From NCBI GenBank assembly GCA_951406725.2, contig OX597816.1, forward strand, positions 104,966,001 through 105,030,000: DNA of 64,000 nt, written 5' to 3'. Positions 5,522 to 57,684 of this stretch are shown here, in pieces. Position 1 is the first letter of the stretch, and the number at the start of each line of letters is the position of its first letter. The position numbers and the translations under genes are program-made. The notes beneath the pieces are model-generated. The model was not told the origin of the DNA and did not search any database. It saw only the letters and a program-made list of their open reading frames with translations. The DNA is from Octopus vulgaris (taxonomy: Eukaryota).

Positions 5522-5554
5522 GTCATACCGGTTTCGTCATCACTGTTCACTAAC
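5522..5554 (-). ncRNA. Minimal type I hammerhead-ribozyme-like motif, G3-C8 core
   Basis: GUUA-GUGAACA-GU(GAUG)AC-GAAA-CCGG-UA-UGAC; lies downstream of a PLE ORF in the same orientation. Confidence 0.6.
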
Positions 5555-6760
5555 TTTGAATCAACACCGATTTCCAAATGGTGTTGGGTCTAATAGTACC
5601 TGAGTGAAAAGAATGCATGCAAGGGAAGTAAGCAGTTCTGAAAATGATGCAATTGGGTTAGTACGATTAATAGCGCATGAATGGTATATGGGATGTATGA
5701 GGATTAGTAGGGTTATTGGTATTAGTAAGGTTAGTAGTGTTCTGTATTAAGTTGTGTGTGCATGTTAAATTGTGGATGATATTTATTAATGAAAGTTGCC
5801 CCTTTATTAGGTCTTTGCTGCGCTGAGGTGTTCTGGGAACATTGATAAAACGGGAAAATTAGGAAGTTTGGTTTAAGGATCCTAACACATCTATCTGTGT
5901 GCTCACTTACCTGTATCTGTCTACAATGTGTGAAGTGGATTTGTTATTTATGAAGCGTTGTTCTTCGTCTGAGAGACATTCGTGTTTGTTTTATATAGTG
6001 GTTTCTGCAACCTAAGCAGGTAATAACATAGATTAGGTTTTCAGAGGCACAAGTGAAATTTGACTCTATCTTAAGTATTTCACCTTGTTTGAAGTGAAAT
6101 TCTTACCCTTCAAAGTTAGGTCGCCCGCATTTTTCCACTTTTGGTTCCAATGTTAAGGGATATAGTCTTGCACCGCTTAATATTTTCTTCAATGATTTCG
6201 GTTGCATTTTGCTTTCGATAATTTTATGTGAGCTCAAAATTTCGTTCCTTGTTTTATCTCCAGTGAGAATGGGTAGGTTTTGGATGATGGTGTTGAATGT
6301 CTTATTGTTTCTTGGATTATGAGTGGAGATGTATGGGAGTACTTTTAAATTTGGTGGAGTATTTCGGTTAACTTCCCTTAATGTGTGTATGTCTAGTTCC
6401 TTTACTCGTTTAATACCATCATCTACTGATGCTGTTGGGTAATATCTCTTGATTAGTGTTGATTTAAGTTCACGGAGTCTTGCTTCCGAAACTATGGTAC
6501 AAATTCTTTTCGCTAGATTATAAGATATATTAATTTTTATGTGTTTGGGTTGGCATGAGTTGAATACTAGGTATTGTTTTCAATCTGTGGTTTTATAAAA
6601 GATATCCGTTTCGATATGGTTATTGAGTATTTTAATTAGGATATCAGGAAAAGGAAGTTGTTTATTGCTGTGTTCCATGGTTAATTGTATGTTGTTATTG
6701 ATATAGTTGAGCATTATTTTGAAATCGAGGAGTTTGTCCATGCTAACGTTCCTAAGTATA
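5522..6760 (-). mobile_element. Penelope-like element, 3' part (RT thumb to GIY-YIG, decayed)
   Basis: Minus-strand translation LPFPDILIKILNNHIETDIFYKTTD..YLVFNSCQPKHIKINISYNLAKRICTIVS parallels the ORF at 46836-47396. Confidence 0.85.
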
Positions 6761-7599
6761 ACGCAATCACTGAAGTACTACTTTATACTTTGGAATGATA
6801 GCATGGATAAACACCCCGATTTCAAAATAAAACTCAATAATATTAATAGCAACATATAGTTCACCATGGGACACAATCTACAGTGAGAAATTTTCTCTGT
6901 GACAAAATACAGTGAATGGCTTTCTTACGGGTTTGGATATGTTCCAAGCCATTTCGGACTAATAATTGACTTGTATTTATACACAACACTGCTTAGTTCT
7001 TTTATTTCGTATACAAAAATAGTTATTTATTTATGTAGACAATAATCATACTAGAGCAGAATGGTAACATAAATACAGAAATAACATGCACTACTTTACA
7101 AAATTAAACAACTGACTGTTGATGTGACATCCACTTGACTGTGTCTAATATAAGAACCATGAACGCATGCCGAAATCACTTCCGCTTGAAAATTAGGTCT
7201 TAAGAGACTAGAAAAATTGATGATAGAAGTAAGACATTAACAATTTTATAGAAACAGCAATCATTTTGAACAAATTTGAAGGAAAAGAAGACCTTAACTG
7301 AAATAACAATAATATTAGAATACAATCATGTATGAACGACGAGTCAAATAGAAAAAAAAACTGATTCCCATACAAATATTTATACACAAACACACGCACG
7401 CACATATCTATGTAAATATACGTCTATATTCGTATGTGTGTGTGTGTGTGTGTGTAAATACACATGAACTCACACACACACACATATATATATATATATA
7501 TATATGTATATATATGTATATGTATATAGTGTATCATCATGTGTTAAATATTTAGACTGACTAAATTAGAGATGCATTACTTGAAGTTTCACAAACAAA

Positions 7600-8549
7600 A
7601 CTAATATCTAATAGTTCAAATTCTTATTTCTGACAGACAGGCAAAGCAGTTGCAGCTTTTGCATGAAAAGATGTGAGATCGGTACAGACGACCTAGGAGT
7701 GTCTCATCATATCACCAAGAGAAATGAGTACATCACACGTATACACTACGAAATTAATATCATGAAATTAGAGAAATAATTAAACAGATACTCTAAGCGT
7801 ACAGCTCTCAGCTGAATTTAGGGTGACTAGACTAACCTACTTTATCGACACTGGGAAAGCATCATTCCAGCACAAAAGTATGCATGGGTATACATCGTGC
7901 AAGCAAGAACATGCCGACACCATTAACAAAAATAATGGCTTTTTATGAACCTGCGATAGATTCTCCACATTTCCCTTTTGCTAACCAAGACAAGAGGTAT
8001 CTTCCCATTGTGATCGAAAATGTTGACTTTGCCATATCAGTATGGAAGACATCACTCTTTTCAACAGCTCTCCAAAAATCTCCACAAGATACTAGGTATA
8101 AAAGTAATGGCTTTTTTCTCATGAGACATGATATTGTCGCTAAAATTGTCCACAGTATAGGAAGATTTGTCCTGGTGGCCTTACTAAAGCAACCACAATG
8201 TATGCAGACTTTTAGAAAAAAAGAATACTAGTTGAATGTTCCCCTAAAAGCAGCAACACGGTGTAATCACAGAAGGTCATATATTGTTCAATGGAGCAGA
8301 GAGCAACCATCTGTTGTGGAGATCATTTGTTCAGCAGATGTGAATGTCACGTCAAACATCAGAGACAAACAGGACAACTTAAGAAAACTGAGAAGAAACT
8401 TACAGCTACTATATCCAAGCTATAGATTTTCATTTGTTCTTAATATGCAAAATCAAAAAGAACTGAGCCGATTGATTCGCATTCTTGAAATACAGTTAAT
8501 TAGTGGTACAGTAAAAAATTCCAAAACTTTCTACAGATTCTACAGTTGA
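7600..8549 (+). mobile_element. RLE-type non-LTR retrotransposon, decayed C-terminus
   Basis: RHDIVAK, CNHRRSYIVQW, VVEIICSADVNV; same family as 53700-54690. 5' limit is uncertain. Confidence 0.65.
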
Positions 8550-9254
8550 GGTTCCTAAGCTGAACACATACACATAATCACATCTACATACAGAGTGCAT
8601 ACAACCACATTAACACTAATGAGGCACATACACATGTGCATTTGAGTGCCGTGCCATGCACACCTAATATATGAGTGGAAGTTTATCCCCAGCATATGTA
8701 TGAATACACCAACTAATTCAGTTATCCATAAACTCAAAGAGCTGTCATGAAATAAACAAATAAAGAGCCTTGTCACTTCGTTAGTGATAACGAAGCGACA
8801 AGGCTCTATTTTGCTTATTTGAATTCTACAAAGTAAAAATAGTTGGGTAAACATACATATTGTATTTATTAATGAAATGATTCTTGACAGCCAGTCGGAA
8901 TGTTTTACTTACAGATTAAGCTGTAAGCTCTCAGGAATCAGTTCTTTAATAAATAATTATTAACACCGTTTTGAGTTCTTTGTATGAAAGTGATTTATAG
9001 TTAATAACTAAACTTTCAAATGCAATATGTATATACACATACATAACTATCTCTCTCTCTCTCTCTCTCTCTCTCTCTATATATATATATATATATATAT
9101 ATATATATACACACACATATCTATGTATAAATACATGCATTTATGTCTATGTATATATGTATGTATACATAGATATAAATATATACATACATATATATAT
9201 ATATATCTGTGTGTGTGTATTATGTATGTACGCATACATATATCTATATAACTA

Positions 9255-55493: not shown

Positions 55494-55724
55494 TTGTTAT
55501 ATATGTATGTATGTATGTATGTATGTATGTATGTATGTATGTATGTATGTATGTATACATATATACACACACACATATATATATATATATATATATATAT
55601 ATATATATATATATAAACATACATATAATAAATATTTTGTTTTGCAAAATAGTGGTTTTGTCTCGAATTAATATTATAAACATATATATATATATATATA
55701 TATATATATATATATATATATATA

Positions 55725-55868
55725 ATTAATAAAAAAAAATAAGAAAAAAAACAAGAAAAACCAACAATGCGAGGACGTGGTACATGCAAAATTTTAAGAC
55801 GCTCAGAGAAGGAAAGAAAGAGTGGTTGTTTTACGTTTCGAGCAAAGCTCTTCTTCGGAAATAGGAAA
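55725..55868 (-). mobile_element. H1-related terminal repeat, inverted partner of 55346-55493
   Basis: Reverse-complement match including the hammerhead-like motif at 55828-55862. Confidence 0.8.
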
Positions 55869-56644
55869 GTTCATATATATATATGTCATCGTCAAGGGAA
55901 GAGACCTGATGGAAAGTAACAGACATCAAGAGGCGACGATCAAACGTCGAAACCGCGAAGAGCAATTCGCACTTCCTCGTCCTCCGCCAACACCCCCTGA
56001 GATAAGTTACCCCACTCCTTTTCTTCTATACCACTCAGTCACCGGCACCTTTCACACTGACCAAAAGGAAGAGGCTCAAATACTGACTACAGATCTACTA
56101 TTCGGATACGAGTCAACGCCATAAAAACATAATATGTATAGCATATAATAATCGCTTCGTGGCATTTCCAACAAACTCCTTTTCAGGAAGTAGGATTATT
56201 TCAGAAATCAATAATTCTCCAAAATCGGCAGGCTGTTAACAAAAAAACCACTTTCATTAATAGGAAACAAAAATACAGCTGTGTCGTGTGTTTCTGCCTG
56301 ATGATATTTATACATATCATCAGGACAATAGTTTTCTCGTCTTATCTCCAAAGCAAAGCGAGAGATCTTTACAAAAATGTAATAAGCAATTCAAATATAA
56401 AATATACTAAATACAATACAAGATACATTGTTGGTATGTCACCGCGTGCAAGGAAGATAGAGCTATTGTTTGGAACCGGTGTGAATTTCATACATACATA
56501 CTAATTTATAAAAACATATAGTATTTTCCTATATTCACACATACACGCATACACACATAATTCTGCGCGACTGAGTAGTTACACACACACAAGCACACAA
56601 ATATATACGTATGTTCTTTTCTTTTCTTTTTTTTTGTTGCTATC

Positions 56645-57684
56645 TTTTACTTGTTTCTGTCATTTGATTGCGGCTATGCTGGGGCAATACCTTGAAGGGT
56701 TTTAATCGAACAAATCAACCCAGGACTCATATTTTTTAGGCCTAGTACTTATTCTATTTGTCTGATTTGTCGAACCACTAAGTTACGAGGACGTAAACTA
56801 TTACCGGTTGTCAAGCGCTGGTGGGGGACAAGCAGACACAAAGACATACACACACACACACACACACAAACACACACACACATACACACACACACACACA
56901 CACACACACACACACACACACACACACACACACACACACACACATAAATATATATATATATATATTCATATATATAAGGTTAATCCAAACGGGAAAACAG
57001 AAAAAACAACAACACGTGGAACAATTACAGTATTATTATTATTAGGCGCTCAGGAAAAAGGAAGAAGGAGGGTATGACGTTTCGAGCGGAGGTCTTCGTC
57101 GGAAACATAGGAGAAAGAAAGATCCCGAGACGGGAGGATATATATATATATATATATATATATATATATAATATATATATATATATATATATATATATAT
57201 ATATATATATATATATATATATATATATATATATATATATATACATATACATATATATATATATATACATATATATATATACATATATATATATATATAT
57301 ATATATACATATATATATATATAATATATATATATAATATATATATATATATATATATATATATATATATATATATATATATATATATATATATATATAT
57401 ATATATATATATATATAATATATATATATATATATATATATATATATATATATATATATATATATATATATATATATATATATATATATATATATATATA
57501 TATATATATATATATATATATATATATATATATATATATATATATATATATATATATATATATACAACGGACTTCTTTCAGTTTCCGTCTACCAAATCTA
57601 CACGAGGCTATAGTTGAAGGTGCCATGTAATGGGACTGAACCTGGAACCATGTGGTTCTAACCACACATCAACACCTCTGTGCC
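56645..57684 (-). mobile_element. SINE family A split by an expanded microsatellite and an H1 insertion (56975-57137)
   Basis: 3' half at 56645-56845, 5' half at 57567-57684; (TA)n at 57138-57563. Confidence 0.85.

Follow-up and report, generated by a model that had tools for sequence, protein, structure and literature searches.

Six repeat families of small hammerhead-like motifs with a covarying 3-8 core pair, most of them at the ends of Penelope-like elements, in the Octopus vulgaris genome

Minimal type I hammerhead ribozymes are a described feature of Penelope-like elements (PLEs); the literature is cited here for those parts of each source that were covered. According to Cervera and de la Peña 2014 (PMC4209133), they sit in the pseudo-long terminal repeats (pLTRs), occur as thousands of single truncated copies per genome that form consensus families, and combine a short stem I with an extra base after A9, a G10.1-C11.1 pair and a palindromic 15.1-16.1 segment. 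The same source describes U3-A8 families and inverted pairs, and reports that PLE motifs cleave weakly as dimers and not as monomers. Small PLE hammerhead variants with a short palindromic stem III that cleave as dimers are likewise covered in a review (PMC6765202). Natural U3-A8, a U10.1.U11.1 mismatch, a 2-bp stem II, and U4C (in a viroid) and A6C were reported by Perreault 2011 (PMC3088659). The lizard PLE Poseidon of Anolis carries a hammerhead, a tail signature and a preference for AT-rich targets; in this system activity is lost with C3G or G8C alone and partly regained when both are combined, and cutting requires the protein (PMC11167929). Here, we analyzed a 64,000-nt window of the 2.8-Gb Octopus vulgaris assembly, which is rich in microsatellites and holds no intact genes. 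Each of the 15 motifs found in this window is shaped like the small, likely self-cutting hammerhead RNA known from PLEs. The motifs belong to six dispersed repeat families (A to F, with A split into A1, A2 and A3), four of which lie in PLE 3' terminal repeats, as the other two likely do, and we consider it probable that they stem from weak type I hammerheads cutting the RNA of their source elements.

This is a refinement of a known system and not a new system. The window families match the hammerheads of PMC4209133 in position, copy number, stems, palindrome and U3-A8, and they have their palindromic stem III and PLE link in common with the small variants of Lünse, Weinberg and Breaker 2017 (PMC5785218; as described by its title and PMC6765202). 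Published features thus include the minimal PLE hammerhead as such, its palindromic stem III, its cleavage as a dimer, the base added after A9 and the U3-A8 core, and the surprise voiced in the first-pass annotation of this DNA was too great, since thousands of minimal PLE hammerheads per genome, their consensus families and U3-A8 all appear in PMC4209133. What looks new is the family-wide fixation of G3-C8 (B and C; >5,000 copies), U4C (A1, A3 and E) and A6U (A2; ca. 9,800 copies). In contrast to these family majorities, the 56 aligned examples in Fig. S3 of PMC4209133 have CUGANGA or UUGANAA cores (one has UUGAAGA), and none has G3-C8, U4C or A6U. The U10.1.U11.1 mismatch and 2-bp stem II of PMC3088659 recur in F and B, respectively, but the variants there are rare single examples whereas ours are family-wide states present in thousands of copies, and G3-C8 and A6U are not named in the covered parts of that paper. 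Further, G3-C8 is a laboratory mutant in the Anolis element (PMC11167929) and a natural family state here. Searches of the open literature found no earlier report of natural family-fixed G3-C8, of A3-U8 or of PLE family-wide U4C or A6U, although Lünse 2017 may hold such variants; nor did they find a report of hammerheads in octopus, subscription papers lying outside this scope.

Motifs are named by the position of C3 and the strand, using standard hammerhead numbering. All 15 motifs proposed in the first-pass annotation are present, a few bases away from where it had placed them, its numbers mostly marking the motif end instead of C3. Its claims that positions 3 and 8 are always Watson-Crick complementary and that stem III is usually palindromic are in good agreement with the window: 15 of 15 motifs are paired at 3-8 (11 C-G, 3 G-C, 1 U-A), and the 15.1-16.1 segment is self-complementary in 12 (ACGU, ACCGGU, AAUAUU, ACAUGU or ACAGCUGU), the other three being 15324-, which has a true 4-bp stem III, and two broken copies. 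The core reported as CUGUAGA at 20302+ had been misread and is CUGUUGA. A descriptor with G5, A9, GAAA, U16.1, H17 and the stems fixed and positions 3, 4, 6, 7 and 8 free was run against 40 local dinucleotide shuffles of the window. G5 and G12 are the standard hammerhead knock-out sites. Nine matches were obtained, compared with 0.5±0.7 (max 2) in the shuffles, and eight of them combine a 3-8 pair with A6, against an expectation of 0.08. Seven of the nine are annotated sites, meaning that seven of 15 window copies pass the strict type I layout; the other two (5835+ and 62784-) are chance-like.

The eight annotated sites that fail the descriptor comprise one F motif (15324-), with a U.U at 10.1-11.1 that is typical of its family, one E motif (18204-), whose stem II carries the family's extra purine on either side, and six copies damaged relative to their own family. 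These are 24301+ (24294..24334; A1, CUGACGA, G at 17), 57102- (57069..57109; A1, CCGACGA, stems I and II damaged, stem I reduced to 1 bp), 20302+ (20295..20336; A2 with A6U, palindrome broken), 23735- (23701..23742; A2, decayed core CUCUAGA, G5 and U16.1 lost), 25981- (25947..25988; A2, CUGUAGA with A6U, stem I lost) and 48380+ (48373..48423; D, UUGAUAA with U3-A8, ACAUGU, stem I of 2 bp here and 4 bp in most of the family). The relaxed descriptor does yield singletons, namely the two just mentioned and ca. 8 unpaired ones in 0.9 Mb of flanking sequence of the loci retrieved for analysis (given by numbers that begin with L), which is roughly the chance rate; the same flanks added three U3-A8, one G3-C8 (L211:6390-6440, core GUGACCA, in an unassigned repeat of the Octopus vulgaris genome) and four C3-G8 motifs. 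Nevertheless, the idea that all motifs merely reflect a relaxed pattern meeting AT-rich repeat DNA by chance has a negligible probability and is ruled out by the excess in the window and in an outside set described below (44 matches versus 2.3, with a strong sense bias), as well as by the fixed position of the motif in PLE ends. Rfam hammerhead models gave no match above the gathering threshold in four loci (L246, L279, L288 and L248), and on the window Rfam returned microsatellite-driven microRNA matches only and no hammerhead among the matches listed (150 of 703).

To sort the motifs into families, seven window queries were searched against the genome and the 12 to 30 best loci of each were aligned. 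Stem II, the palindrome and downstream sequence are common to A1 (24301, 28761, 50920 and 57102), A2 (20302, 23735 and 25981) and A3 (55356 and 55858), and the window therefore holds six independent families, the others being B (5550), C (17234/17251), D (48380), E (18204) and F (15324). The 15 motifs do not amount to as many independent ribozymes, as nine of them form one superfamily and 17234-/17251+ is a single inverted duplication. Within the window alone, the covariation is thus limited to three 3-8 pair states among the six families. Genome-wide copies were counted with exact 33-35-base patterns in which 3, 4, 6, 7 and 8 were free, so that all counts are lower bounds, and core states were tallied by eye over the first 100 matches listed, or all where there were fewer. 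The seven patterns yielded 26,757 matches (A2 9,825; A1 8,157; C 5,041; F 3,454; D 167; E 84; B 29) while the reversed controls yielded none, which bears out the proposed membership in large repeat families.

Core states are largely fixed within each family. G3-C8 is found in 94 of 100 C matches and in 26 of 29 B matches (23 of 25 aligned B loci), U3-A8 in 97 of 100 D matches and C3-G8 in 99 of 100 F matches. In case of A2, 95 of 100 have U6 and 2 have A6, and C3-G8 is kept in 96 while N7 is free to vary (A 36, U 33, C 25, G 6). C4 occurs in 70 of 100 A1 matches, 21 being wholly canonical, and in 74 of 84 E matches; some of the U4 copies in A1 and E may result from CpG decay of C4. A CUGANGA or UUGANAA core is thus found in F, D and 21 of 100 A1 copies, with B and C (G3-C8), most of A1, A3 and E (U4C) and A2 (A6U) departing from it. 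As the first-pass annotation anticipated, a strict CUGANGA search would miss these families: extrapolated from the listed matches, ca. 80% of family copies fail it. In all 8 subfamily samples G5, A9, G12-A13-A14, A15.1-U16.1 and H17 are the majority letters. The 15.1-16.1 segment is palindromic in A, B, C, D and E, F having a real 4-bp stem III instead; an extra base follows A9 in A, C and E and is lacking in B, D and F; and G10.1-C11.1 is present in A, B, C and D and absent in E and F.

The proposed 3-8 covariation is real and holds in an unbiased outside set. This set comprised 120 loci of other organisms, retrieved by PLE protein alone (the 80 best of 337 from metagenomes plus the full 40 from genome contigs). 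When 3 and 8 were left free, 44 sense matches were found in 38 loci and all 44 are paired, with all four Watson-Crick pairs in use. Antisense matches numbered 8, of which 3 are paired, two of these being inverted true copies, and shuffled loci gave 2.3±1.2 matches with 17% paired. The 36 distinct outside motifs comprise 29 C-G, 5 U-A (one doubtful), 1 G-C (L279, GUGAACA) and 1 A-U (L288), G-C and A-U being seen at one locus each outside Octopus vulgaris. A permutation figure for this covariation of 2e-8 ignores relatedness and is a bound only. In a protein tree of 38 tips (35 outside loci with one for each distinct motif, to which B, D and L212 were added; duplicates and match-less loci were left out), the pair state switches at least 8 times and no tip is unpaired. 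D and L212 (both U-A) form a group with B (G-C) at a support of 100, beside C-G relatives, while L279 lies far from B, indicating that G3-C8 arose in two separate branches; L288 (A-U) is sister to L262 (U-A).

These compensatory swaps of an active-core pair suggest selection for the active fold. They bear on a competing view, in which PLE ends are of hammerhead ancestry and their fold persists by mere inheritance or because it binds protein or helps to package the RNA; the elements could then do without catalysis, and the high-copy variant families would be dead ribozymes. Neither A6U in ca. 95% of A2 nor U4C in ca. 70% of A1 halted massive amplification, published Naiad PLEs proliferate without hammerheads, and cleavage is not required in vitro according to PMC11167929. 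Against this stand the 3-8 pair of the active core, swapped at least 8 times with compensation and never left unpaired at a tip, and the retention of G5, A9, GAAA and U16.1 in every family majority. We therefore regard this view as rather unlikely for the families as a whole; it may apply to A2 alone.

Association with PLEs is direct for four families. With the frame at 46752-47393 as query, 144 proteins were retrieved, many with reverse transcriptase (RT) and GIY-YIG domains and with named relatives including octopods and bivalves. Three broken PLE frames mapped with these proteins each lie upstream of a motif of like orientation and end 200-700 nt away from it. The first (5764..6813, minus strand; RT thumb, linker and GIY-YIG; tblastn 53% to P0002, E 2e-110) ends ca. 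200 nt upstream of the B hammerhead (5519..5557, minus strand, C3 at 5550), which has a GUGAACA core with G3-C8, a 7-bp stem I, a 2-bp stem II, ACCGGU and a predicted cut after 5526. The second (18659..19635, plus strand, mapped by the proteins over 18659-19395; RT thumb, CX4CXXC linker and GIY-YIG) is followed by a CA-rich stretch and then the A2 motif 20302+; of 39 further places that were scored, 20 are collinear with it from the endonuclease to the motif. The third (46581..47777, plus strand; RT, thumb, CX4CXXC linker and GIY-YIG) ends ca. 600 nt upstream of the D motif. Of 25 loci each, 21 of family B and 10 of family D carry a PLE match, mostly upstream and in sense orientation. B, D and A2 thus sit in sense orientation in the terminal repeat of an element with RT and GIY-YIG, and F does so at both ends. 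A 'Poseidon-type' label for B and D was dropped as their linkers are CX4CXXC, the Neptune/Nematis type. One ORF-linked A2 copy (C1:3461497) carries A6, and A6 and U6 therefore both occur in long copies.

The proposal that the motifs belong to PLEs accordingly stands for A2, B, D and F, and lacks a link to an open reading frame (ORF) for A1, A3, C and E. No PLE frame was found within 1.5 kb of A1 (0 of 30 loci) or A3 (0 of 20 loci), and no ORF link was reached in the C and E copies examined, which weighs against our preferred reading; C and E do show a PLE-like layout. Frames are absent within 1.5 kb of C and most E copies as well, the few PLE matches near C, E, F and A2 in the locus scan belong mostly to other insertions, and A1 homology extends only ca. 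110 nt upstream among 30 loci. A1, A3, C and E might therefore be non-autonomous, retrozyme- or SINE-like (short interspersed nuclear element) units with small, possibly circular RNAs that use PLE proteins in trans, and retrozymes derived from pLTRs are known (10.64898/2026.07.22.740005). We consider this improbable, because copies are single or inverted and seldom head-to-tail, their 5' ends are graded rather than fixed (many of the 100 C matches listed extend further upstream), homology extends upstream for ca. 970 nt in E and ca. 660 nt in A3, and A1 and A3 are homologous to the ORF-linked A2. Non-LTR retrozymes resemble the window motifs in placing type I hammerheads in pLTR-related animal repeats, but are defined by tandemly arrayed units of 150-400 nt that carry canonical ribozymes and by circular RNAs (PMC7229834; 10.64898/2026.07.22.740005). 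Our motifs are dispersed, 5'-truncated and often inverted ends: no tandem array over a motif was seen in the window (among the matches listed, 150 of 177), and two-copy tandems occur only at L007 and L097/L098, so that the description 'retrozyme-like' finds no support here. Membership in PLEs is instead indicated by copy structure. Copies have a sharp 3' boundary next to (TA)n target sequence and graded 5' ends, they commonly have an inverted 5' partner, and the tail is found on one copy only; PLEs are described with this layout in 10.1101/2021.04.23.441226. The motif lies 55-230 nt from the 3' end of the element and is therefore carried by short 5'-truncated insertions, giving rise to tens of thousands of copies.

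Several apparent links and boundaries were discarded. A frame in L212/L065 that seemed to tie C to a PLE has its own U3-A8 motif, and other insertions lie between E and the frame in L208. In 12 of 12 loci, C seemed to be a 200-nt element that always starts 15 nt ahead of the core, but this was a query artefact because only 12 of >5,000 copies carry the 5-mer found there and many extend further upstream; 5'-end clusters in A1 and A2 are equally apparent only and follow the query start. The C copies in the window form an inverted pair, 17234- (17192..17241, GUGAACA, G3-C8, predicted cut after 17199) being the inverted partner of 17251+ (17244..17293, GUGAACA, G3-C8, extra G after A9, 5-bp stem II, AAUAUU, predicted cut after 17286). 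The E motif (18151..18211, minus strand) has a CCGAUGA core (U4C), an 8-bp stem II and the palindrome ACAGCUGU; the upstream part of this copy (18555-18620) is inverted relative to L208 and holds a TATA-like TATATAAA. Intact A1 motifs are 28761+ (28754..28794, CCGACGA with U4C, stems intact) and 50920+ (50913..50953, canonical CUGACGA, extra A, ACGU), the latter in a ca. 210-nt truncated element with (TA)n at its end. The two A3 motifs, 55356+ (55349..55389) and 55858- (55825..55865), both CCGAAGA with U4C, face each other across microsatellites.

Family F is a young Hydra-type PLE with 99-100% identity between copies over 1.1 kb. The window copy (15279..15331, minus strand; canonical CUGAAGA, U.U at 10.1-11.1, 6-bp stem I, predicted cut after 15286) marks the 3' end of such an element, and whole units of 5.2-5.7 kb with the motif at both ends occur in L238, L240, L242 and L246. 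Inspected translations show the Hydra-clade marks, namely DKT, a CxCX5C linker, a C-terminal GIY-YIG without CCHH and (TA)n insertion. Hydra-clade PLEs in 10.1101/2021.04.23.441226 agree with F in DKT, CxCX5C, the absence of the CC pair from the GIY-YIG core, (TA)n and the hammerhead, but are described as <3 kb; F is longer because of a 3.4-kb microsatellite-rich 3' region. Classification as Naiad was rejected since the GIY-YIG is C-terminal. The 3' region consists of ca. 3.4 kb of CA/TA/TG microsatellite (window 15332-17050, minus strand; L201:5100-8450), and its window part at 15332..16900 reappears in other F copies, reaching 1,570 nt or more upstream of the core. As the microsatellite is F's own 3' region, F spreads microsatellites when it moves. 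RT and endonuclease are out of frame at a C run in 32 of 34 F occurrences (L238-L247, e.g. L246:3272-5430), a sample in which overlapping loci are counted twice and loci were picked by likeness to one such copy. Contigs from four public runs cover family F, with no joints listed, and mostly show another length of the C run; such contigs show no ends, strand or level. The frame break could mark a subfamily that is mobilized in trans, an allelic variant or an error in the homopolymer.

In the mechanism that we favor, the ribozyme of a tandem pLTR-ORF-pLTR unit would trim read-through RNA and free the element RNA, with stem III built by the palindrome together with a second copy or helped by the element's protein. 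Source elements would need some cutting, at a slow pace that often leaves the 3' motif uncut at the time of copying, and truncated insertions would scatter passive copies that decay. Selection acting on few source elements could explain why the 3-8 tertiary pair is swapped yet stays paired while single genomic copies decay. Both sides of the scissile bond are kept in the copies and templates were thus likely uncut or re-joined, which fits slow cleavage; in the Anolis system uncut RNA is the main template (PMC11167929).

A number of observations count against this reading. The two largest families fix changes at positions where substitution is reported to lower activity (A6U in A2 and U4C in A1), and low activity is reported for A6C and U4C in PMC3088659. 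Stem I has only 3-4 bp in A and D, dimers are weak (-1.7 kcal/mol for ACGU, -0.2 kcal/mol for AAUAUU), and simple minimum free energy folding mostly gives no hammerhead shape, although it is uninformative for such motifs. Of the outside loci, 82 of 120 had no match, many lacking a 3' end, and unpaired cores may exist in motifs that fail the descriptor on other grounds. For the Anolis element, cleavage was unnecessary for insertion in vitro and no reads ended at the cut site (PMC11167929). The large U4C and A6U families are either tuned down in activity or a sign that cutting can be lost, and this is the main uncertainty.

Another paper considers the function of PLE hammerheads unclear. On this question the repeated compensatory swaps speak as evidence from evolution, pointing to selection of source elements for the active fold, and the data suggest that canonical searches undercount hammerheads in the Octopus vulgaris genome ca. 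five-fold. A bolder view, which we put forward tentatively and hold at somewhat below even chances, is that all four 3-8 pairs are used in nature, that PLE hammerheads are catalytic yet deliberately slow, that the most successful families of this genome fix core changes (G3-C8, U4C and A6U) which would weaken cutting and so spare enough uncut RNA for copying, and that most hammerheads of animal genomes may be invisible to canonical searches. The families offer natural test pairs for these ideas, namely G3-C8 in B and C, U3-A8 in D, U4 versus C4 in A1 and A6 versus U6 in A2.

Among the retrieved loci, L288:1960-2010, on a metagenome contig, has an A3-U8 core (AUGAGUA) with a 5-bp stem I, a 6-bp stem II and ACGU at this single locus, and L279:110-160 places a G3-C8 motif beside a distant PLE of another organism. 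Forty PLE loci (L328-L367) come from assemblies that bear bacterial labels, many of them from a single Stappiaceae bin, and are most likely animal DNA in metagenome bins. Long open frames judged by eye include an LTR-type RNase H/integrase region (L212:7458-9500, minus strand) and an RT region of the long interspersed nuclear element (LINE) type (L210:8062-9501, minus strand). Pfam gave nothing above its cut-off for 16 short window frames, and a homolog search with 18623-19288 found no relatives. Elsewhere in the window, we noted a further small PLE thumb fragment (61367-61565, minus strand), a probable LINE C-terminus (44147-44749, plus strand), a weak DDE_3 match (24435-24773, plus strand; E 0.004) and a minisatellite at 33016-33606 with 17.4 copies of a 34-nt unit at 80% matches.

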